A DNA stretch of 64,000 bases, from assembly GCA_965200965.1 (NCBI GenBank), contig OZ241744.1, positions 64,001-128,000 of the forward strand, read 5' to 3'. The translations under genes and the position numbers were made by a program. The notes below the pieces were generated by a model. That model did not search any database. It was not told where the DNA came from and saw only the letters and a program-made list of their open reading frames with translations. The DNA comes from an uncultured Candidatus Binatia bacterium (GTDB lineage Bacteria; Desulfobacterota; Binatia; Bin18). Shown here one piece after another: positions 24,684-63,992 of the stretch (within the stretch, counting starts at the first letter, position 1; the number at the start of each line of letters is the position of its first letter).

Positions 24684-25136
24684 CTAGACCTGGCCCAACT
24701 GGCGCAGGGCCTCGTATAGCACGATGGCCGCGGCGTTGGACAGGTTCAGGCTGCGGACGTGTTGGCCCGGCATGGGGATGGTGTACAGGGACTCGGCTAA
24801 CTCGGCCCGGATAGAGGCTGGCAGGCCGCGCGTTTCACTGCCAAACACCAGCAGATCGTCGGGCCGATAGCAGACCTGGGTGTAGGACTCAGTGGCCCGG
24901 GCCGAGAAGGCCAGCAGCCGCCCGACGGGCCGCCGGCGGAGAAATTCGCCCCAATCCGCATAGGTCTGCACAGCGACATGCGGCCAGTAGTCCAGGCCGG
25001 CCCGCTTGAGATAGCGGTCTTCAAGGGAGAAGCCGAGGGGACCGACGAGGTGAAAGGCGGTGTGTGTGGCCGCGCACAGCCGGGCGGTGGTGCCGCTGTT
25101 GGGCGGAATCTCGGGCGCAACAAAGACGATGTGCAT
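24684..25136 (-). CDS. trmL: tRNA (cytidine/uridine-34-2'-O)-methyltransferase, SpoU family
   Basis: PEIPPNSG, LKRAGLDYW, FGSETRGLP, RSLNLSN. Confidence 0.92.
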   Translation of the reverse strand: MHIVFVAPEIPPNSGTTARLCAATHTAFHLVGPLGFSLEDRYLKRAGLDYWPHVAVQTYADWGEFLRRRPVGRLLAFSARATESYTQVCYRPDDLLVFGSETRGLPASIRAELAESLYTIPMPGQHVRSLNLSNAAAIVLYEALRQLGQV

Positions 25137-25140
25137 GGGG

Positions 25141-25620
25141 TCAGGACTGAGGATCGGCCACGGAGATGGGGTAGGCGGTGTCGTTGAGGCGCAGGACAAA
25201 CGCCCCGGTCTCAGGCTCTTCGTCAATATAGGCGGCCAGTTGATAGTAGGCCGGGCGGGAGAAACGGGCCAGGTGGGCGTGTCCTTTGACCCGGCAGTAC
25301 ACGACATTGTCCGGTCCGATGTGCAGCGTGTCAGGGCTGAGGGCTTCTTCGCTGGTGTCGTTCAAGCGGACCCTGAGACCCCGGTCACGGTCGCCGCCCA
25401 GCGCGGTCACAAGGTAGGGCGCGTCGTCGATCTCAACCGTGGCCGTGTCCCGACCCAGCACAATCTGGTAGCGGCCGTCTTCAGTCCGCCGCAGATGTTG
25501 GCTGAACAGCAGGTTGATGCGCCGGTTTTCGATCCGCTCGTCATTGGCGTACCACCAGCCGTCTTTCCCAAAGCTGATCGTGCGGATGGAGTCAATCGCC
25601 CAGAATCCTGCTTTTGGCAT
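25141..25620 (-). CDS. DUF1285-like protein
   Basis: DGWWYANDERI, VEIDDAPY, YCRVK..ARFSRPAYYQL. Confidence 0.7.
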   Translation of the reverse strand: MPKAGFWAIDSIRTISFGKDGWWYANDERIENRRINLLFSQHLRRTEDGRYQIVLGRDTATVEIDDAPYLVTALGGDRDRGLRVRLNDTSEEALSPDTLHIGPDNVVYCRVKGHAHLARFSRPAYYQLAAYIDEEPETGAFVLRLNDTAYPISVADPQS

Positions 25621-50800: not shown

Positions 50801-51136
50801 ATGACTCCTGACTCGTGGACCATCATCGGCACCGGGATTGTGATCCTGATAGCGATTGCAACTTCCAACCATCGTCTTCGCGCGGAAATGAAAGACCTGC
50901 GGGGCGAAATGAAAGACCTGCGCACGGAAGTCAAAGACCTGCGCACGGAAGTCAAAGACCTGCACGGACGGATGACTCGGCTGGAGGCGGACCTGCGGGA
51001 GCAGATGAGCGGTCTGGAGATGAAACTGGGCGAACGGATGACTCGGCTGGAGACGGAACTTCGGGAGCGGATGGCCAAGGTCGAAGGGCTGCTTGAAGGC
51101 TTGCGTGAGGCCGTTACCGGCCGCAAAGTTGCCTGA
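50801..51136 (+). CDS. Small TM-anchored coiled-coil protein with tandem repeats
   Basis: N-terminal TM helix; four E(M/V)KDL(R/H)x heptads (21-bp repeats), then four 11-aa repeats. Confidence 0.75.
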   Translation: MTPDSWTIIGTGIVILIAIATSNHRLRAEMKDLRGEMKDLRTEVKDLRTEVKDLHGRMTRLEADLREQMSGLEMKLGERMTRLETELRERMAKVEGLLEGLREAVTGRKVA

Positions 51137-51714: not shown

Positions 51715-52725
51715 TCAGCCGCAGGCGGTTTCGAGCAGTGCGGCGCACACCTGATAGGGGTCCATGTTGGCCGCGGGACGCCGGTCTTCCAGATACCCGC
51801 GGCCTTCATTGGCGGTGGCCATTGGAATCCGCACCGAGGCCCCACGGTCGCTGATGCCGTAGCGGAACTCATGGATGCTACAGGTTTCGTGCAGGCCGGT
51901 GAGGCGTTCTTCGTTATGCGCCCCATAGACCGTAATATGCTCCGCGTGCCTTTGTTCCAGCGCTTTGCAGGCCGCGGTGACCACCTCGAGGCCGCCGGCC
52001 GCGCGCATGGATTTGGTGCTGAAATTGGTATGCGCGCCGGCACCGTTCCAGTCGCCTTTGACCGGCTTGGGGTGGAGCGTAGCGTTGACGCCGGAATCTT
52101 CGGCAATGCGGTAGAGCAGCCAGCGGGCGATCCATAACTGGTCGGCTATCTCAGGCGCTCCTATGGGGCCGATCTGAAACTCCCACTGCCCGGGCATGAC
52201 CTCGGCATTGATGCCGGAGATGGCCAGCCCGGCTTCCAGACAGGCGTTCATGTGGCTCTCAACAATCTCGCGGCCAAAGACCTCATCGGCCCCGACCCCG
52301 CAGTAAAACGGCCCCTGGGGTGCGGGATAGCCACCCTCCGGCCAGCCGAGGGGTGAGCGCCCGCGGAAAAATGTATACTCCTGCTCAATACCGAACCAGG
52401 GGTCGTGGTCTTGATACTTGTCCTGAATCTCAACGAGGGGCGCGCGGGTGTTGGACTCATGCACCGAGCCGTCCGGCAGCCGGACCTCGTTCATCACCAG
52501 GATGTTCAGACCCCCACGGATGGGGTCAGGAACATAGTACACGGGCTTGAGCAGGCGGTCGCTGTTGTGCCCCTCGGCCTGCATGGTGCTGGAGCCGTCA
52601 AATCCCCACTGCGGAATATCTTCGAGACTGTTGACGGGTTTCTCAAGGATTTTTGTTTTTGAGCGGAGGGTGGCCGTTGGTTTGTTGCCGTCCATCCAGA
52701 TGTATTCGGCCTTGAGTTTCGTCAT
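51715..52725 (-). CDS. glnII: Glutamine synthetase type II
   Basis: MTKLKAEYIWMDG, WGFDGSST, NAEVMPGQWEFQIG, GDWNGAGAH, GYLEDRRPAAN; 336 aa; AAGGG RBS. Confidence 0.9.
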   Translation of the reverse strand: MTKLKAEYIWMDGNKPTATLRSKTKILEKPVNSLEDIPQWGFDGSSTMQAEGHNSDRLLKPVYYVPDPIRGGLNILVMNEVRLPDGSVHESNTRAPLVEIQDKYQDHDPWFGIEQEYTFFRGRSPLGWPEGGYPAPQGPFYCGVGADEVFGREIVESHMNACLEAGLAISGINAEVMPGQWEFQIGPIGAPEIADQLWIARWLLYRIAEDSGVNATLHPKPVKGDWNGAGAHTNFSTKSMRAAGGLEVVTAACKALEQRHAEHITVYGAHNEERLTGLHETCSIHEFRYGISDRGASVRIPMATANEGRGYLEDRRPAANMDPYQVCAALLETACG

Positions 52726-52959
52726 GGCGATTCCCCTTTCCTGAAGATGATTTCGCCGGGGCAGGCGGGGAGGGGGCAGTGCCCGGCTGCTCTGTCCCGA
52801 CACCACAGAATTGTAGCCAAGCCGGGGAGAAAGTTCAACGAGGGGGAACGCCCCGGGGCAATCAGGAGGGAGACCGCCCCGGGGCAAATGGCAGGAGCAC
52901 CGATTTTCTCCTGCCACACTGGTGTTCTGACTCACGGCCGGTGACGGTAATTGTTGTGT

Positions 52960-53125
52960 TCCGGGACGCTTGAAGGGCCAACTGGACAGTTCGCTCAGGG
53001 GCGCGAGCGCGTTCAACTCGCCGGTCGTCAGTTCAAGAACGATGTTGCCGATCTGAATGGAGGTGTTTCCCAGGGTAAACCCACAGGCTGAACGGCTGGC
53101 TGTGTGCCTTCCATACGGTGTCCAT
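52960..53125 (-). pseudogene. Frameshifted paralog of the small proteins at 54668-54859 and 58693-58908
   Basis: AGGAAG RBS + MDTVWKAHSQPFSLWVYP, frameshift near 53071, then GNTSIQIGNIVLELTTGELNALA; 3' end undefined. Confidence 0.45.
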
Positions 53126-53296
53126 AGCGGCTTCCTTTTCAGGTCAAAGGGACAACAGAGAAGAGTGCCCCAGGGGGCGGGGCAGGAACCCCCGGGGCGA
53201 CAGCGGGAAGGAGGGTTTCCCGCTGAAAGGTGTTGTGTGCGGTAGACTGAGAACCAGAAAAGAGCCTGTGAGGACACATTGTTTCACCATCCTTGC

Positions 53297-53324
53297 CGGC
53301 TCTAGGCTCAGGGCCGTTGACCTT
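53297..53324 (-). promoter_or_regulatory. 28-nt leader motif, copy D
   Basis: AAGGTCAACGGCCCTGAGCCTAGAGCCG; its AGAGCC pairs with the downstream GGCTCT-TTT (53258-53266). Confidence 0.65.
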
Positions 53325-53331
53325 TTTCTTA

Positions 53332-53358
53332 AGTTGAAATTGACTATCAATTTCAACT
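53332..53358. promoter_or_regulatory. Fur-like box overlapping a minus-strand promoter
   Basis: Palindrome agttgaaattga-cta-tcaatttcaact; TTGACG-17nt-TATTTT at 53388-53360. Confidence 0.75.
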
Positions 53359-53797
53359 AAAAATATGTCAGCTTTCTCGTCCCGTCAAGGGGGAAACGGG
53401 TCTTTTTGCAAAAAACTTTCCGACCCCGGTAATCCTAAAACGAAAAACACCAGTGCCAATCAGCCCGCCAAGGCCGGTGGCAAGAGTTTTTCTCCGCAGC
53501 CCAGCCCGAGCCGCAGCCCACTGAAGGCCACAAACAGATAACTGCCCAACTCGGCCACCGCGGAGCGCACCAAGCGCAGGGCTTCATTTTTTGCTTCCTC
53601 AAGACCGGGAAGGCCCTGTCAAGCAGGTGCAAGGTCTGGCTGATAACCCTGGCCCGATGGTGACGCTGGCCCCGCAGCAGTATGATGGCTTGGCGGCGCT
53701 CGCCTTTTTCCAGATGGGCCAGGGTCTGGACGATAACACCCTTGGACCGCTGTCGCCACCATTGCCGCAGCTTGACCAGGATGACGGCCAGCCTACC

Positions 53798-53825
53798 GGG
53801 CTCTAGGCTTGGGATCTCTGGCCGC
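53798..53825 (-). promoter_or_regulatory. 28-nt leader motif, copy C
   Basis: GCGGCCAGAGATCCCAAGCCTAGAGCCC, followed by TAGGCTGGCCG which can base-pair with it. Confidence 0.65.
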
Positions 53826-53840: not shown

Positions 53841-53864
53841 GTTGAAATTGATTATCAATTTCAT
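53841..53864. promoter_or_regulatory. Fur-like box
   Basis: gttgaaattgattatcaatttcat; minus-strand TTGACA at 53892-53897. Confidence 0.75.
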
Positions 53865-54936: not shown

Positions 54937-56811
54937 TCACAAAGACTCCAAAAAAATGATGAGCGCTTCCCGGTCTTCTCTGGGCATCACGCGCACAGCC
55001 TCACGCGCCCGGGCCGCTTCTCCGCCGTGCCACATGACCGCTTCCATGAGAGTACGCGCCCGGCCGTCGTGCAGGAACAAGGTATGGCCCTGGACCCGCA
55101 GGGTGAGGCCAATGCCCCATAGTGGTGGCGTCCGCCATTCGCGGCCGCTGGCCAGAAAGTCGGGCCGGCCGTCGGCTAGTCCTTCGCCCATGTCGTGGAG
55201 CAGCATGTCGGTATAGGGGTGAATCGTCTGGTGCGATACCTCCGGCACCCCGACTAAGACCCCTGTCCTCAGCGTTGGGGTATGGCAGGCCGCGCAGCCG
55301 GCCGCGGCAAATACCTCTTCGCCTCTGCGCACCTGCGGGTCATCCACCCTGCGCCGGGCCGGGACGGCCAGGGTTTGGACGTAGAACGTTGCCACGTCAA
55401 GGGTTTCCACGTCAATCTCAGGGTCGTCCGCCAAGCCGTCGTCCTGGAGTTGGCCAGTGGCGCTTTCGATCGGCAAGACCGGGTTGGTAATGCCGATGTC
55501 CTGCTGATAGGCGTTGAAGGTCTGCTGGAAGAGACTGGAATTATTGGCCTTCCAGCCAAAGCGGCCCAGCCGGGTTGCCCCCGAGGCAGTGTCCCAGACC
55601 ATATTCGGTCGGCCGGAAATCCCATCTCCATTGGCGTCAAACTCATCGGCCAGGGCCAGGATGGTCGCGCGGTCAAGGGCTTCCAGCAGGCCGCGCCCAA
55701 ACACCGGCAGGGCGGTGCGCGGTGAAGTCAGGACTTGGGCGGGGAGGGGGACAGCGGGGTTCTCAATAGTAAAATGCAGGGTCCGCAGCCGGATGCTTTC
55801 GCCATCGGCAAAAGTCTCAATGCGTTCGGTCTGGGTCATGCGCACATCCGCCTCTGGCAGGACGCCAAAGACGGCCCGATGTTGCAGCTGCGTCCCCATG
55901 CCCGGGACGGGGAGCGGGCCGCGGGTGACGGCATCCGCGCCTGGCACGCTGACCCGCAGAAAAATGGTGTCCAGCCGCTCGCCCTCTCGTGGCGGGCGAC
56001 CCCGGCCGTTTTTCGGATGACAGCTGGCACAGCCAGTATTATTGAAGATCGGCCCCAGGCCGCTGAAGACCGGAGCGGGGGCCGTCACAAAGGTGTCTCC
56101 AAAGGCGGCGTCGCCATCGAGATGTTTCTCCAGACGCGCCCCGACCAAGTTGGGGGCCGGCATTTCAAACGCCTGGCTGGTCGCGTCAAAAATCGTGGTC
56201 TCCCCACCCGCCAGGGCTGTGCTGCGGGCACCGACCGGAAGGCTGGCCGGCGCGGCCAGGATGACCGGGGATTGGGTGCTCAGGCTGTAGCCCAGGCGCA
56301 GATTAGCGCTGCTCGTGCCATGACGAGAGCGCACCTGTGCCCCAGACACCAGGAGTTCATTCCCCTCAATGACGGCGCTCGCCCGGCTGAGGTCGAGCTG
56401 CTCAATGAACTCCGCCCCGCCCGGCTTGACCACCCTGACCGGATGTTCCACGGTGACTGGTTCATCCCCTGCCGCCCTGACCTCCACCCCGATTGTGTGG
56501 ACGCCGGCATTGAGCAGGCCGTAATTGAACAGCAGTCCAAAGGCTGTTTTCAGCGGCGCGCCGGGAATAGCGTCCATCACGTCCTGGCGCGGACTACAGC
56601 ACGCGACAGGGCTGACAGGCTCGCCATTGATACGCAGCCTGACCGTAATGGGCGCGCCGGTATCGGAGAAAGCCCAGCCGGAAATGACGCTCAGCCCTGA
56701 TACGCTACCACCCTGGCCGGGATTCTCCAGGACAGCGGTGATGGTGGCCGGACTGACCGCCGGCCACAGCAGCAACACCCCTGCGATACACGCGCGATAC
56801 CATATTGACAT
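54937..56811 (-). CDS. Di-heme oxidoreductase family (DHOR/DUF1111) protein with extra N-terminal Ig-like domain
   Basis: GLGPIFNNTGCASCH, GRFGWKA, CAACH, WRTPPLWGIG, LHDGRAR. Confidence 0.88.
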   Translation of the reverse strand: MSIWYRACIAGVLLLWPAVSPATITAVLENPGQGGSVSGLSVISGWAFSDTGAPITVRLRINGEPVSPVACCSPRQDVMDAIPGAPLKTAFGLLFNYGLLNAGVHTIGVEVRAAGDEPVTVEHPVRVVKPGGAEFIEQLDLSRASAVIEGNELLVSGAQVRSRHGTSSANLRLGYSLSTQSPVILAAPASLPVGARSTALAGGETTIFDATSQAFEMPAPNLVGARLEKHLDGDAAFGDTFVTAPAPVFSGLGPIFNNTGCASCHPKNGRGRPPREGERLDTIFLRVSVPGADAVTRGPLPVPGMGTQLQHRAVFGVLPEADVRMTQTERIETFADGESIRLRTLHFTIENPAVPLPAQVLTSPRTALPVFGRGLLEALDRATILALADEFDANGDGISGRPNMVWDTASGATRLGRFGWKANNSSLFQQTFNAYQQDIGITNPVLPIESATGQLQDDGLADDPEIDVETLDVATFYVQTLAVPARRRVDDPQVRRGEEVFAAAGCAACHTPTLRTGVLVGVPEVSHQTIHPYTDMLLHDMGEGLADGRPDFLASGREWRTPPLWGIGLTLRVQGHTLFLHDGRARTLMEAVMWHGGEAARAREAVRVMPREDREALIIFLESL

Positions 56812-56919: not shown

Positions 56920-58557
56920 TCAGTAGGCAAAACTCGCTGCCGAGACAAGCGGCAGAATGTCTTGCAGGGCCGCGTGCAAGGTCTGCCCGGCATCCACCGC
57001 GGCTTGGACACGCGCACGGCCGGCATCGTTCATGATGCTCTGGCCAAAGGGCTCAGGGATGGCGATGACGGCCGCTATGGCCTCACGCAGTGCGGCCCGG
57101 ACCCGCACATCCAGCTCGGGGTTTTGATTGGCGACAAAGTCCGTCACACCCATTGAGGTGCCGTCAGTCTGGTCAAAGCGGCCCTCGTAGATGTTGTTGA
57201 TACTGCGCAGATTGTCGATGAAGTCGCGCCTGGAATTATTGCTGAAGCGGGATTCTTCTTCTGCGGTACTGCGGTCGTTGAGCGGGACAGCCAGCTTGGT
57301 GTTGGCCACCTCGTCGGCAATACCGATCATGCCGTTGACCAGTTCCTGGACCGCGGCTTTTTGACTGGTGTAGTTCGTACTGCCTCTGCCAGCCATAGCC
57401 AACTGACGCACAAAGTTCCCGTCTTCAGGGTCCCAAGCGTTGCGGAGCGCACCGGTGTTGCCAACAAATGCGGTCAGCACCTCCTGCGCATAAGCGCTTC
57501 TGCGGGACTGGGTACCATCGGAGTTGAGCAGGGAGGCCACAATCGCGGTGGGGTCTGTCCTGCCGGCCTGATCCTGGAACAGCAGATATTCCAGGGCGTG
57601 GAAGCCTCTGGTGTCATCCTCAAGAGTCAGGCCAGCAATGTCAGTGTTAGAGGCGATGATGTTTTCCAGGTCGGTCGTATTGAGCGGCCAGGAGTCCAGG
57701 GCGGGGTCATGCTCGTCGGTATCGACCGGCCCGAACAGAAACGCCTCGCTCTGCTCCCAGGGAACGCGGGCCTCCCGCCAGGCGGTCTGGACGGTGGCCA
57801 GACGCGCAATCATGCTGGCCCGGTCTCCGGCCATCACGGCGTTGAGGACGGCTGACTGGAGATCCGCTGCCCGTGTATGCAGTGCGTCATAGGTATCAAA
57901 AATAGCCCCGGCCACATCCTCTAGCAGTTGTGAGGCGTCGTAGGGGGACCGCGCCGGCCCACGAGCATCCTGGGCGAGGGCAATGCCGAAGGCCTGGGCG
58001 GCTGTGCTATAGGCCAGGGTCAGTGTGGTGGTGACTGGGGTGGCCTGGTCTGCTTTGGGGGTGGCCTCGGCTCCGGTAATGACGATCGTGCCGTCATCTT
58101 CGTCTATGGTGACGGTAGCATCTTCGATGGACAGTGAGCCGAGAACCTCGGCATCCGCCGGCCGCACCACCGTGATACCGCTGTCCACCATCACCGGCTC
58201 CTCACCAGCAGCCCTGACCTCGACACCTATGGTGTGGACGCCTGAGGGTAAGACGCCGTAGTTCCACAACAGGCCGAAGCCGCTGTTGGGCGGGGCGGCT
58301 GGATAGGCGTTCTGCACATCCTGACGCGGCCCGCAGCACAGAATCTCGGTCTGGGTGGTTACACCATTGAGGCGCAGCCATACGCTGACCGGGGTATCCG
58401 GGGTATCGCTGAAGGCCCAGCCGGAAAGAGCGGTTATGCCGCTGGCCCTTGTCCCGTTGGCCGGGTTTTCCAGGTTGACCCGGATGGTTGCCAACGCGGG
58501 AAGAACGGTGAAGAGGAGGGAGATACAGAGTGTTCCAAAAACGATTGCCTTTTTCAT
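56920..58557 (-). CDS. Imelysin-family (M75-like) iron-regulated protein with extra N-terminal Ig-like domain
   Basis: WEQSEAFLFGP, DSWP, GFHALEYLLF (GxHxxE), DEVANTK, ESRFSNNS. Confidence 0.88.
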   Translation of the reverse strand: MKKAIVFGTLCISLLFTVLPALATIRVNLENPANGTRASGITALSGWAFSDTPDTPVSVWLRLNGVTTQTEILCCGPRQDVQNAYPAAPPNSGFGLLWNYGVLPSGVHTIGVEVRAAGEEPVMVDSGITVVRPADAEVLGSLSIEDATVTIDEDDGTIVITGAEATPKADQATPVTTTLTLAYSTAAQAFGIALAQDARGPARSPYDASQLLEDVAGAIFDTYDALHTRAADLQSAVLNAVMAGDRASMIARLATVQTAWREARVPWEQSEAFLFGPVDTDEHDPALDSWPLNTTDLENIIASNTDIAGLTLEDDTRGFHALEYLLFQDQAGRTDPTAIVASLLNSDGTQSRRSAYAQEVLTAFVGNTGALRNAWDPEDGNFVRQLAMAGRGSTNYTSQKAAVQELVNGMIGIADEVANTKLAVPLNDRSTAEEESRFSNNSRRDFIDNLRSINNIYEGRFDQTDGTSMGVTDFVANQNPELDVRVRAALREAIAAVIAIPEPFGQSIMNDAGRARVQAAVDAGQTLHAALQDILPLVSAASFAY

Positions 58558-58692: not shown

Positions 58693-58908
58693 TCAGTGCT
58701 TTGTCTGGCCATGCTCACAGTTCTGGTGTTCAAGCAGATGTTGCTGGGTCGCCATGATGACCTCCGCAAGGTCGAGAAAATCCGTCCTGCGCAAAGAGAT
58801 ACAGGTGTGACCAACGCAGAGGGCCACGCTCCCGTGTGGACAGACCCGGGTAGAAAGCCCACGCTGGTTCATAAAAAGGACCGTGTTATCGTCCTGGATT
58901 TTTTCCAT
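58693..58908 (-). CDS. Small hypothetical protein (CPxG family), first gene of the imelysin operon
   Basis: AAGGAGG RBS; VCPHGSVALCVGHTCISLRRTDFLDLA; His-rich tail. Confidence 0.65.
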   Translation of the reverse strand: MEKIQDDNTVLFMNQRGLSTRVCPHGSVALCVGHTCISLRRTDFLDLAEVIMATQQHLLEHQNCEHGQTKH

Positions 58909-58937
58909 CTCTCCCTCCTCCTTATTAGGGGAACGGC

Positions 58938-58976
58938 AAAAAAAGAGCCCGCGAGAATTGTCTCTCCACGGGCTCT
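58938..58976 (-). terminator. Intrinsic terminator within the 5' leader (attenuator) of the imelysin operon
   Basis: AGAGCCCG...CGGGCTCT followed by a T run, about 30 nt upstream of the first ATG. Confidence 0.8.
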
Positions 58977-58997
58977 GGGTGCAGGACCGCTGGCCTC
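58970..58997 (-). promoter_or_regulatory. 28-nt leader motif, copy B
   Basis: GAGGCCAGCGGTCCTGCACCCAGAGCCC; its last 7 nt form the 5' arm of the terminator. Confidence 0.75.
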
Positions 58998-59092
58998 AAG
59001 TGCTCCGGCTGTGACAGCTGCGGATTATGGTGTCATGTTTGTGTCCTTTCTGACTCCCGGTGATTCCCTGTCGGTTCACGAGGGCAATGCTG

Positions 59093-59124
59093 ATTGAAAT
59101 TGAAAATGATTGTCAAGTTCATTT
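59093..59124. promoter_or_regulatory. Fur-like box between the divergent imelysin operon and ferritin-like gene
   Basis: attgaaattgaaaatgattgtcaagttcat resembles GATAATGATAATCATTATC-type arrays. Confidence 0.7.
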
Positions 59125-59235
59125 TATTCAATAAAATCAATAACTTAGAGCGAAAATTGACTTGACATTGAGCGCCAGAAGGGTTAGCCTGGGTACAGAT
59201 AGTTTTTCCACACCCTCCACAGAAAGGAGTTGACA

Positions 59236-59697
59236 ATGGACACACCTACAATGATTGACGCGCTGAACCGGGCCGTGGCTCTTGAGCACACCGCGGTCAT
59301 GCAGTACAAACAACACGCCCTGCTGGTCAGCGGCCTGTGGCGCAAGGAATACGAGGGCTTCTTTGGCGACCAGAGTGAGAGCGCCCTTGGCCATGCCCGG
59401 AAGTTCGGCCAGAAGATCGTTTCACTGGGCGGTATCCCGACGGTTGAGTTGGGCGCGCCGATTCGCCAGTCAACCGACCTCGAAGAGATGCTGAACCAGG
59501 ACCTGGAGTTGGAACGGGCCGCCCTGTACGCATACATGGAGGCCCACAGGCTGGCCGATGATAATCTGCCGCTGCGGGTCATGCTGGAGAACCAGGTTGA
59601 GGCTGAGCAGGAAGATATCGAAGGGCTGGAAATGGCTCTTGGCATGGTACAGACTTCCGGGCTTGAACGCGAAATCAATCTGCGCCGGGTCGGCTGA
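59236..59697 (+). CDS. Ferritin-like/bacterioferritin-related protein
   Basis: LNRAVALEHTAVMQY, IVSLGGIP, DLELERAA; AAGGAG RBS; TTGACA-17nt-TAGCCT promoter at 59162-59190. Confidence 0.8.
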   Translation: MDTPTMIDALNRAVALEHTAVMQYKQHALLVSGLWRKEYEGFFGDQSESALGHARKFGQKIVSLGGIPTVELGAPIRQSTDLEEMLNQDLELERAALYAYMEAHRLADDNLPLRVMLENQVEAEQEDIEGLEMALGMVQTSGLEREINLRRVG

Positions 59698-59715
59698 GCG
59701 CCAGACACACAGACC

Positions 59716-60090
59716 TCACGCCGTCTCAGCGGGTGGTTCAGCATTCCGGAAAGCCCGCTTGGACCGACTCCCGGCCCGGTCTTCGCCGAGTTGATGCTGT
59801 TGTCCTCCCCGCTCGTGCTGCCTGGTCGGAAAGGGGATGACCTTCCCGCTGGGCGCTTGGCGGCCTTCGCGCCAGGCACTTCGGTTCCTGCACACGCTAT
59901 GCAGCAGCGCTGTGGCTTCTGCCGGACTGAGCCGCAGGGTGTGTTGACGGTACCAGCCTACGCCCCTGCCCCAGGACAGGCGGCGCAACTCAAGCGCCGG
60001 TTTCCCCCCATCAGTCGGGCTGAGGAGGATTTCGAGCCGACTGTGCTTGTCATCCGCGGTGACTGTGCTCAGCAGTTGCTTGTGTGACAT
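59716..60090 (-). CDS. Hypothetical protein
   Basis: AAGGAG RBS; LELRRLSWGRGVGWYRQHTLRL; last gene of the porin-ApbE operon. Confidence 0.6.
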   Translation of the reverse strand: MSHKQLLSTVTADDKHSRLEILLSPTDGGKPALELRRLSWGRGVGWYRQHTLRLSPAEATALLHSVCRNRSAWREGRQAPSGKVIPFPTRQHERGGQQHQLGEDRAGSRSKRAFRNAEPPAETA

Positions 60091-62216: not shown

Positions 62217-63662
62217 CTAGAAAACAAAGCCCACGCCAAAGTTCACCTCGTCTTCGCGCTCGTGGCTGTTCTCCACCGTATCGAAGTTCCGATAGTCCAC
62301 CTTGAGCACGACATTGGGATGGGGTTTATAGCTGATGCCGGTGGTCCAGATGCGGTGCTCGTAGCGACCCTTGGCATCCCAGTCACCGGCCATCTCGGCG
62401 TGCTGGTCAATATAGGAGAAGCGCAAAAAGGGCGACAATTGCTGTTGGGTGTCGCCCAGGACCCACGGCATGATGTCGTAGGCCGCCTCTGTATAGAAGC
62501 CGTACATCTCCTTGGCGATCTTGCCGCCCCCCCCGATCCGGTTGAGTGTGTCCGAGTCCTCCAGATGGGACATGGCGAACAGCGCCCGCAGGTCCAGCCC
62601 TTGCCAACTGTACATGGCATGCAGGTCCCAGATGGTCAGGCGCGCGCCAGGCAGATTGACCTTGCCACAGCTCCCGTCTACGCACTCGAAGTACTGACTA
62701 TCGTGGCTTGACTTGCCAGTGTAGACCGAGCCGCCAACCTTGAGGTTCAGCATGGGTGTATAGTCCAGCCGCGCGGCAAGGGCGATGTCCTCGGCCATGG
62801 CTTCGCCGCCCTTCTGACGTGTGCTGCGCAAATGCTCCTTCAGGTTGAGCGAGGGGCTGGTCACGCAGTTGCCGTTCTCGTCTGGCATACACGAAGACGT
62901 GTTGCTCGTTGCGCCTTCAAGCGCATTCATGGCGTAGAGGCGATATTCCAGACCGGGCAGCAGTTCGCCGAACACCCCGATACCGTTCTCACGCCAAGTT
63001 GAGGGGATGATGCGCCGCTCGACCTCGGGTCGCTCCACCCCGTTGAAGAACACGGGTTCGTGCAACTCGTTGACGATACCCAGCGGGGCGAGCAACATGC
63101 CGGCGCGGAAGTTGGCCCACTTCCACATCAGGAAATCAATGTAGGCAAACTCGACCGAGACCGAGCCGCCGGTGCTGGTTGAGGCGTGCTCAAACTCCAA
63201 CTCGGCGTTCAGAATGATACGGTCGGTAAACTTATAGCCCGTGTAGAGCACAAAGCGCAGATAGTCGGTCGTGTCACGGTCGCTGCGCGTCTTATCACTC
63301 ACATCCTTGCGGTAAAAGGCCTCACCATAGCCGCCGATCGACAAGCCCCGCTCGACACCATAAATCTTGGAGGCCGCCGGTCCCAGGCCGTACACGCTGT
63401 CTTCCAGGGTCAGCGGCTCGAAGTCGGGCACGGTCAGGCTGGTGCGGAGGCTTTCAAACTCCTCGGCCAGCAGGCTGGTACGCCGGGCCGCTTCTTCTTG
63501 CTCTTTTTTCCGCTCTTCTTTGAGAGCGGTCAGTTCTTCCTGCATCTGTCGCATCTGCTGTTCAAGCTGTTGGATGCGGCCGTCATCGACCGCCTCGGCC
63601 AAACGGGAAGTCCCTGTTATGCACATGAGCGTCGCCAGGGCGACTGCCAACTTTCGTACCAT
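62217..63662 (-). CDS. Outer-membrane beta-barrel porin with N-terminal coiled coil
   Basis: Signal peptide, coiled coil, IGGYGE, ELEFEH, HEPVFFNGVERP, IIPSTWRE, C-terminal GVGFVF. Confidence 0.8.
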   Translation of the reverse strand: MVRKLAVALATLMCITGTSRLAEAVDDGRIQQLEQQMRQMQEELTALKEERKKEQEEAARRTSLLAEEFESLRTSLTVPDFEPLTLEDSVYGLGPAASKIYGVERGLSIGGYGEAFYRKDVSDKTRSDRDTTDYLRFVLYTGYKFTDRIILNAELEFEHASTSTGGSVSVEFAYIDFLMWKWANFRAGMLLAPLGIVNELHEPVFFNGVERPEVERRIIPSTWRENGIGVFGELLPGLEYRLYAMNALEGATSNTSSCMPDENGNCVTSPSLNLKEHLRSTRQKGGEAMAEDIALAARLDYTPMLNLKVGGSVYTGKSSHDSQYFECVDGSCGKVNLPGARLTIWDLHAMYSWQGLDLRALFAMSHLEDSDTLNRIGGGGKIAKEMYGFYTEAAYDIMPWVLGDTQQQLSPFLRFSYIDQHAEMAGDWDAKGRYEHRIWTTGISYKPHPNVVLKVDYRNFDTVENSHEREDEVNFGVGFVF

Positions 63663-63699: not shown

Positions 63700-63727
63700 G
63701 GGCTCTGGGTTTGGTACCGCTGGCCTC
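63700..63727 (-). promoter_or_regulatory. 28-nt leader motif, copy A
   Basis: GAGGCCAGCGGTACCAAACCCAGAGCCC, between the com-like stop and the porin RBS. Confidence 0.75.
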
Positions 63728-63758: not shown

Positions 63759-63965
63759 TCAGTTTCCTCCTTTCTGGTCTGCTTGCCACTCAAGGGCCAC
63801 GTCATGCCACAGAGAGGCCGCGGTCCACGGAATGAGCACGATCCGTTTACAGCGTCGACATTTGAGTTCTACGCCGTTTGGACGCAGTCGCGCCAACAGA
63901 TTCCCGCAGCCGCAGCGGCTCTCTTGGGCATGGGTTGACAGGGAAGATGTCGCTTGGATTCCCAT
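63759..63965 (-). CDS. Mu Com-like zinc-ribbon protein
   Basis: ESRCGCGNLLAR...GVELKCRRCKR matches the Com-family pattern RCxxCxxLLA...EIKCxRC. Confidence 0.75.
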   Translation of the reverse strand: MGIQATSSLSTHAQESRCGCGNLLARLRPNGVELKCRRCKRIVLIPWTAASLWHDVALEWQADQKGGN

Positions 63966-63971
63966 AGACGA

Positions 63972-63992
63972 AATTGAAAATCATTTTCAATT
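63972..63992. promoter_or_regulatory. Fur-like box upstream of the com-like gene
   Basis: Perfect 10-1-10 palindrome aattgaaaat-c-attttcaatt. Confidence 0.8.

Follow-up and report, generated by a model that had tools for sequence, protein, structure and literature searches.

Comparison of related loci established that the leader in front of the imelysin operon of this uncultured Candidatus Binatia bacterium (leader B, minus strand) carries two predicted RNA folds, a bulged 28-nt hairpin and a terminator-like hairpin, that the two overlap and are conserved, and that the hairpin motif is restricted to genomes encoding a small Com-like zinc finger. Because the 3′ strand of the motif is also the 5′ arm of the terminator, the two folds are mutually exclusive, and they very probably form a regulated switch. 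We consider it likely that the Com-like finger, encoded 5 kb upstream, clamps the hairpin of leader B for antitermination, with Fur opening the promoter. The window (the whole stretch of DNA analyzed, 64,000 nt) holds four 28-nt copies of the motif, A to D, which were returned by a repeat finder; all lie on the minus strand and downstream of Fur-like boxes (Table 1).

Table 1. Positions in the window of the features discussed in the text
Feature	Position	Strand	Remarks
Com-like gene (four-cysteine zinc ribbon, CxC...CxxC), predicted trans factor	63759..63965	-	sole copy in genome
Fur-like palindrome directly before the Com-like gene	63974..63990
Motif copy A, flanked by the Com-like gene and a porin-like gene (62217-63662)	63700..63727	-	without U tract
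Ferritin-like gene (PF00210), divergent from leader B	59230..59697	+	Pfam
AT-rich block presumed IHF-like, beside the Fur-like box of leader B	59135..59147		kept in most aligned leaders
Fur-like palindrome, leader B	59100..59116		conserved in orthologous leaders
Three-codon upstream ORF (M-T-P-stop) and SD-like sequence	59025..59036, including SD 59025-59051	-	leader B
Motif copy B, 28-nt bulged hairpin, predicted antiterminator and Com-like site	58970..58997	-	covariance model 45 bits
Terminator-like hairpin and U7, leader B	58938..58976	-	fold −20.6 kcal/mol; retained by 20 of 21 leaders of the 71-aa family
71-aa protein, first gene after the attenuator	58693..58908	-	without Pfam family; conserved family of ~70 aa
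Imelysin-family protein (PF09375) with extra N-terminal region	56920..58557	-	Pfam E = 5e-63
Di-haem oxidoreductase family protein (PF06537)	54937..56811	-	Pfam E = 4e-108
Motif copy C, after Fur-like box (53842-53863)	53798..53825	-	from comparison with L005
Motif copy D (53297-53324) with weaker terminator (53258-53303), after Fur-like box (53334-53356)	53258..53324	-

Two predicted folds in the imelysin-operon leader

The first-pass annotation had placed a strong terminator between a Fur-like box and the ATG at 58908, and this was borne out. The minus-strand arms AGAGCCCG (58976-58969) and CGGGCTCT (58951-58944) close a stem (58976-58944), the 17 nt between them, nominally a loop, are further paired, and a run of seven T (including the last T of the arm) stops at 58938; a GC-rich stem directly followed by a U tract, as in an intrinsic terminator, is therefore present in leader B. 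A simple pattern scan with a loop limit of 3 to 8 nt did not return this hairpin, and the 245-nt leader as a whole folded no better than shuffles (z = −0.81). There is, as had been noted, no upstream gene on this strand for the terminator to end: the nearest minus-strand open reading frame (ORF) ends at 59716, beyond the plus-strand ferritin-like gene. The operon does contain an imelysin gene, but the ATG at 58908, the next one 3′ of the terminator and 29 nt from the U tract, starts the 71-aa protein (no named family in the ESM atlas, best 0.85), and imelysin is the second gene. Outside their Pfam domains, the imelysin and di-haem proteins resemble each other in an N-terminal region of ~190 aa, as seen from mutual similarity at the DNA level. 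Leaders B and D were identical in DNA contigs of four runs (at most three samples, two studies; one run is possibly the source of the window).

Judged by the consensus sequences of Fur and IHF, we take the palindrome upstream of the terminator to be Fur-like and the AT-rich block beside it to be IHF-like. We infer that the promoter of leader B overlaps the Fur-like box; no clear −10 element was seen in this leader and a promoter scan gave no match. A sigma-54 promoter, suggested by the IHF-like block, was not supported, as the alignment showed no conserved −24/−12 elements. Box and motif are preceded by a TTGACA/G-spaced −10-like hexamer at copies D, L381 and L383, and a Fur-like box was found within 450 nt upstream of 36 of 120 motif copies compared with 32 of 805 random windows.

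The left arm of terminator B is the end of motif copy B, as claimed in the first-pass annotation, with the last 7 nt of the motif common to both. The motif (consensus GGCCMGMGGY-N5-RYCCMGMGCCC) is predicted to form a hairpin of 27 to 29 nt with two conserved bulges, in which a bulge interrupts the pairing of GGCC to the 3′ G-GCC, and GGY, paired to RYC, encloses a variable loop; since CCMGMG occurs on each strand, this gives two bulged sites related by a pseudo-twofold axis. To survey its distribution, 160 loci around relatives of the finger were collected, mostly from Candidatus Binatia with additional loci from Myxococcota, Nitrospirota and Rokubacteria. In 161 sequences, comprising these loci and the window from 44 to 64 kb, a two-block matrix identified 179 copies, spread over 130 of the sequences; Markov-shuffled sequence gave 17. 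A covariance model scored the four window copies, which were part of its training set, at 33.8 to 45 bits; the next match in the 3.62-Mb genome reached 23.6 bits (E = 0.11).

Stem covariation had been proposed as a check, and compensatory changes were found. Among 64 distinct copies (from 65 ungapped copies, i.e., 61 with a 6-nt spacer plus the four of the window, with other spacer lengths left out), 97.7% of cells pair and two-sided changes occur in five of nine pairs. Compensatory cells numbered 28, compared with 8.9 ± 2.2 in shuffled alignments (reached by 0 of 500 shuffles) and 0 to 2 in slid registers. When pairs were ranked by mutual information over 115 distinct copies (score of at least 23, plus the window’s four), three of the top four lie within the motif stem and the fourth extends it; covarying pairs were U-A 72/C-G 28/U-G 11, G-C 109/A-U 4 and G-C 87/G-U 16/A-U 7. 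RNAalifold returned the same fold. Loops range from 3 to 39 nt, and the inner stem is kept in all five copies with loops of 11 to 39 nt (shuffle mean 0.04). A tree-aware analysis gave one independent covarying pair on supported branches and four to nine on all branches, with at least nine changes at the key covarying position, on a poorly resolved tree of a ~50-residue protein; kinship as a source of the covariation is thus statistically excluded only in part. A small 5′ hairpin (ANTAR- or Mu-like) in the first half of the motif was rejected, as it showed no two-sided changes, below all 500 shuffles.

No Rfam family reached its gathering score in the window, where the leader drew only unrelated weak matches (E of 0.4 to 9), and none matched in 14 related loci. 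The phage motif name D12-methyl yielded no paper in a literature search and no Rfam match in the Mu locus. An exact-pattern scan of viral contigs gave 112 matches, none with a terminator and nearly all apparently due to chance except for one phage family of three contigs; the inner stem was kept in 26 of 112 such chance matches. The exception is a near-perfect copy of the hairpin (44.4 bits) in IMG/VR phage contigs (L242:1500-1528, minus strand; also L278 and L296), located between a small Cys/His zinc-ribbon ORF (E = 0.057 to the finger family, with a C-terminal CxC knuckle) and a PF23140 virion gene with a seemingly sequestered ribosome-binding site. These contigs possibly carry a phage version of the switch.

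Leader D had been described as having the same geometry with a weaker U tract, which was confirmed (53303-53258; −15.0 kcal/mol, 6 U of 8). Copy D precedes a frameshifted small ORF (start 53125; 52930-53125, minus strand) that by eye resembles the 71-aa family, and the 5′ half of this leader has decayed in a congener. Copy C matches the exbB leader of L005, with the terminator and the 5′ end of the exbB-like gene deleted (relic 53536-53792, minus strand). Contigs from two studies confirmed both the frameshifted ORF and the 5′-deleted gene. Neither leader counts for much: leader C is a deletion relic, and leader D is decaying together with its downstream gene. Between the leader D region and feoAB lies a 335-aa glutamine synthetase gene (51715-52722, minus strand), which is present in genome G189 and absent at the same place in G171 and G264. 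A 111-aa coiled-coil ORF made of 21- and 33-nt repeats (50801-51136, plus strand) occupies the space between feoA and this gene.

A Com-like zinc finger as the candidate ligand

A Com-like protein had been put forward as the acting factor, and genome co-occurrence together with homology to Mu Com makes this likely. Its four cysteines are invariant in all 74 aligned finger proteins (~60 aa), and a three-strand ribbon is predicted (pLDDT 79 to 89 over residues 11 to 40). Alignment of the finger to Mu Com was supported by hhalign (85.6%, E = 5.6e-6, 37% identity over 30 columns), 68 of the 74 members matched PHROG gpCom (PHROG 13819) at E ≤ 0.1 (best 1.4e-5), and atlas neighbors of the finger are named Com at 0.91 to 0.95. 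None of the 74 reached the cutoff of Pfam PF10122 (one at E = 0.032; no match in genome G000), so the finger is treated as a divergent subfamily and labeled “Com-like.” Fold searches with the finger model returned nothing at E ≤ 0.001, a PDB sequence search nothing below E = 0.07, and no relative of the subfamily was confirmed in viral contigs. The first ATG of the Com-like ORF (63965, minus strand) stands 9 nt after the Fur-like box without an SD sequence, with the same spacing in L347, and the gene may be leaderless.

In a class survey of 151 genomes, the finger was found in 56 and the motif (E ≤ 0.01) in 38, all 38 within the 56 and none among the 95 finger-less genomes, with the counts including kin genomes that are not independent of one another. 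Imelysin genes occurred in 33 genomes, of which 10 lacked the finger, and none of these 10 had the motif. Five of the 10 were searched again singly and gave only one weak match, antisense inside a gene; five further weak matches (25 to 29 bits) in finger-less genomes of a phylum sample, and one in G215, lay inside or antisense to coding sequence and were dismissed as chance. Conversely, 18 of the 56 finger-bearing genomes had no motif match at E ≤ 0.01; when seven of those neighborhoods were re-examined, five held a divergent or long-loop copy and two had none. All three copies examined at distances of 1.6 to 2.8 Mb from the finger gene are preceded by TTGACA and a Fur-like box, as are a copy 8.5 kb away on the other strand and a copy on another contig, and two of these five have clear terminators. 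Most copies adjoin the finger gene, so part of the co-occurrence reflects linkage; nevertheless, the restriction of the motif to finger-bearing genomes suggests that the Com-like finger likely binds the hairpin.

Mu Com is a proven RNA binder, and according to the available text of PMC6483171 it selects bipartite, symmetrically placed 5′-CC(N)2-3GAG-3′ sites. The 3′ half-site of our motif (CC-CA-GAG) fits this pattern and the 5′ half-site (CC-A-GCG) fits loosely, both lying in the bulged stem rather than in the apical loop. The motif model matched neither the Mu mom site nor four other phage com loci.

It is unlikely that the switch is real and answers to some other ligand (a metal ion, a metabolite or another protein) in a riboswitch-like manner, with the finger merely traveling in the iron island. 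The linkage of most copies to the finger gene, the unmatched Mu site and the phage ribbon, which stands beside a 44.4-bit copy of the hairpin and is barely like the finger family, would all agree with such a ligand. It would leave unexplained the absence of the motif from every finger-less genome, the distant copies in finger-bearing ones and the resemblance of the half-sites to those selected by Com. An Fe(II)-binding RNA would have the wrong sign, since stabilization of the hairpin is expected to turn iron-uptake genes on, and there was no match to an Rfam riboswitch.

Transcription and translation as predicted outputs of the motif

In many copies the 3′ strand of the motif pairs with a downstream GGY. 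A terminator class, defined by this GGY and a U tract (at least 5 U of 8) within ~60 nt downstream, comprised 56 of 125 homologous copies, compared with a mean of 2.8 and a maximum of 7 over 200 shuffles; the geometry annotated in leader B is thus non-random. A folding-based rule assigned 53 of 142 copies, compared with 0 to 2 in shuffles. At least one terminator assignment (L098) is seemingly spurious. Leaders of the 71-aa family belong to this class in 20 of 21 cases. Beyond the motif the stem varies in sequence while its pairing is kept (95% compared with 78% expected; 91% compared with 53%).

The motif hairpin alone folds at approximately −6 kcal/mol, compared with −20.6 kcal/mol for terminator B, which suggests that the default state would be termination (off). 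Holding the hairpin against the finished terminator would cost 12 to 16 kcal/mol at copy B (class median 8.9), and in the full leader B without ligand, before the terminator can form, the hairpin is predicted to be <2% populated. The model therefore needs tight and early binding. The earlier proposal that a protein occupying the motif blocks the terminator holds insofar as an attenuator under control of the motif is supported by comparison, but the motif appears to be more than a footprint, having a competing hairpin of its own. Sequence comparison thus supports the view of the motif as an antiterminator that a ligand would have to stabilize.

A Fur box, a short transcript and an intrinsic terminator beside a ferritin-like gene form the layout of an iron small RNA, which leader B matches. 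Hence, the hairpin could be a constitutive terminator of a ~150-nt Fur-repressed RNA (RyhB/PrrF-like or a decoy for the finger), or could end antisense read-through that comes from the upstream operon across the ferritin-like gene, with the imelysin operon expressed by leakage or from its own promoter. We regard this as quite improbable. The ferritin-like gene converges with the last gene of the Com operon (minus strand) across 19 nt (59697-59716) in which no terminator was found, and read-through there could repress iron storage by antisense transcription in low iron; the mini-ORF within leader B would likewise suit a short RNA. Similar start-stop or two- to three-codon ORFs occur at a like distance in 6 of 21 related leaders (L001, L002, L006, L011, L092 and L105). 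However, conservation of the 5′ 100 nt of leader B is confined to close kin in the alignment, the motif begins only 10 to 30 nt after the promoter or Fur-like box at other loci, and 47 of 55 distinct terminator-class copies have an SD sequence and ORF no more than 130 nt downstream. In leader B the ATG is only 29 nt from the U tract, an interval with no conserved promoter, and a plain terminator leaves unexplained the second, covarying fold that competes for the same arm.

The remaining copies (69 of 125) lack a U tract. With the motif hairpin held, the cost of opening the start region fell by at least 2 kcal/mol in 45 of 61 no-U-tract copies followed by an SD sequence and ORF, compared with 9 of 47 terminator-class copies; when motif A was grafted onto random genes of this genome, 56 of 300 showed such a drop. 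At copy A, the predicted partner of the 3′ strand is the ribosome-binding site, and the opening cost falls from 11.2 to 2.8 kcal/mol. Most copies outside the terminator class are therefore predicted by folding to hide a ribosome-binding site, as in Mu mom, and one element appears to have two outputs, transcription or translation. The first-pass annotation had set antitermination against the translational activation known for Mu Com; the attenuator is supported, but it would add to rather than replace a Mu-type mechanism, which is predicted for more than half of the copies.

It is most improbable that regulation is post-transcriptional throughout, with the long stem acting in processing or inhibiting translation (Mu-type) and the U tract being inefficient in these organisms. 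The Mu mom-like copies without a U tract and their gain in start access over the grafts are what such regulation would produce, as are four loci with an intact stem and a degraded U tract (L016, L176, L179 and L187). In the terminator class, however, the start site is located past the stem, and folding predicts that the hairpin has no influence on access to it (11.6 compared with 11.0 kcal/mol at copy B), and at least 6 U of 8 directly follow the G-C stem base in 51 of 55 tracts of this class, which was itself selected on at least 5. That the motif is instead a DNA operator for a DNA-binding zinc finger, as its CCMGMG direct repeat and the label “DNA-binding transcriptional regulator” given to the finger family in some databases might suggest, with only incidental overlap of the terminator, is barely credible given the compensatory changes and G-U pairs, the long-loop copies that keep their stem (which argue against a DNA direct repeat, with spacing shifts of up to 34 nt), the placement of copies on the sense strand before genes and the alternative small hairpin in the first half that lacks covariation.

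Eight copies lie 176 to 219 nt upstream of the first cysteines of the finger, at least two of them with a terminator (L120:1335, L130:3075, L136, L149:5904, L151, L159, L052:1275 and L044:9791), and positive autoregulation of the finger is predicted at these loci. In one group (L139, L140, L141, L099, L351 and L375) up to three paralogous secreted proteins of one family (340 to 500+ aa) are encoded downstream of the motif.

Proposed mechanism and relation to known systems

In the favored model of finger-dependent antitermination, Fur would repress both the finger gene and the target promoter, so that low iron would release Fur and allow the finger to be made. Two finger domains, one per CCMGMG half-site (a stoichiometry proposed from the symmetry of the RNA), would then bind the motif hairpin during the 20 to 43 nt transcribed before the 3′ arm of the terminator appears. 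The clamped hairpin would block the terminator and permit read-through into the imelysin operon, and without the finger transcription would stop near 58938. At copy A, which has no U tract, the same hairpin would free the ribosome-binding site, like Mu Com on mom. Such a circuit would be a feed-forward loop requiring both Fur release and Com, a second on-switch beneath iron control. A broader reading is rather doubtful as a whole: that a ~60-residue phage-type ribbon acts as a second-tier iron regulator in Binatia, Myxococcota, Nitrospirota and Rokubacteria, forming a new antiterminator class in which one pseudo-symmetric hairpin switches transcription or translation, self-amplifying where a copy precedes its own gene, and sensing metal directly through a Zn/Fe swap in the four-cysteine site, so that Fur on the DNA and the finger on the RNA would each read iron status.

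To our knowledge, only a handful of families are known for protein-controlled antitermination (BglG/SacY, ANTAR and a few others). If correct, the finger-dependent model would add a new family, and its protein would be a minimal zinc ribbon for which only a role as translational activator in phage is known. Bacterial iron control, commonly told in terms of Fur and small RNAs, would gain a layer at the level of RNA. The model would also offer a function for thousands of genes that are unannotated or misnamed “Com family DNA-binding,” and the motif could serve as an RNA tag in searches for the iron-uptake regulons of uncultured phyla, among them the 71-aa family. The recognition of RNA by Com, an unsolved problem, would become testable on a defined 28-mer, and a 60-aa protein with a 28-nt site gating transcription or translation would make a compact synthetic switch.

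A literature search, with subscription papers mostly outside its reach, found no report of Com-type antitermination or of the motif hairpin, and in the available main text of a 224-motif survey (PMC5737381) Com goes unmentioned. As here, Com homologues have been recruited to non-phage genes in Pseudomonas, where chromosomal com genes precede llpA bacteriocins and levansucrase and their role is called unexplored (PMC6240691, PMC3899960); in contrast to our loci, the available text of these papers describes no RNA element, terminator or iron link. A stop codon in com before lscB of Pseudomonas syringae left levansucrase output unchanged (PMC3899960, available text, data not shown there), which indicates that a neighboring com need not regulate. 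A prophage-like stretch at L356 (G084:C60, ~25000-25280, minus strand) carries a canonical PF10122 com gene and, after it, a small hairpin of another kind, which overlaps a terminator located before putative lysis genes; from this one example, canonical Com proteins may antiterminate too.

With Mu Com/mom (PF10122, PHROG 13819) our system shares a homologous ~60-aa four-cysteine finger, a site at or just after the end of com, a bipartite site partly like CC..GAG (PMC6483171, available text) and, in the class of copy A, the predicted opening of a structure that hides the start. In contrast to Mu Com, the first knuckle of the finger is CxC rather than CxxC and the finger falls below the Pfam cutoff. 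The site is a doubly bulged 28-nt hairpin, whereas that of Mu is a 4-bp stem with a hexaloop unmatched by our model; 56 of 125 copies overlap terminators; and a genome has several targets, namely chromosomal iron genes preceded by Fur-like boxes, of which some are distant from the finger gene. Like the RNA targets of ANTAR proteins (AmiR, NasR and EutV) in the available text of PMC3369936, the motif presents two equivalent sites, the second overlapping the 5′ arm of a terminator. Those targets, however, are two separate hexaloop hairpins (P1/P2), a reading without covariation here, and the finger has no ANTAR domain.

The RAT of BglG, SacY and LicT, as given in the available text of PMC5393181, is a hairpin of 29 to 33 nt in which two internal loops are conserved and the apical loop varies; it has 6 to 10 nt in common with an intrinsic terminator and is clamped by a dimer. 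Our motif differs in that Rfam found no RAT sequence match, the candidate finger is a stand-alone zinc ribbon without a CAT or PRD domain (Pfam), and the signal would come through Fur control of finger synthesis instead of phosphorylation. It resembles the RAT in its length of 27 to 29 nt, its variable loop, its two bulged sites and the 7 to 8 nt in common with the terminator, and the finger is proposed to clamp this hairpin as LicT clamps the RAT, a likeness of working and not of membership.
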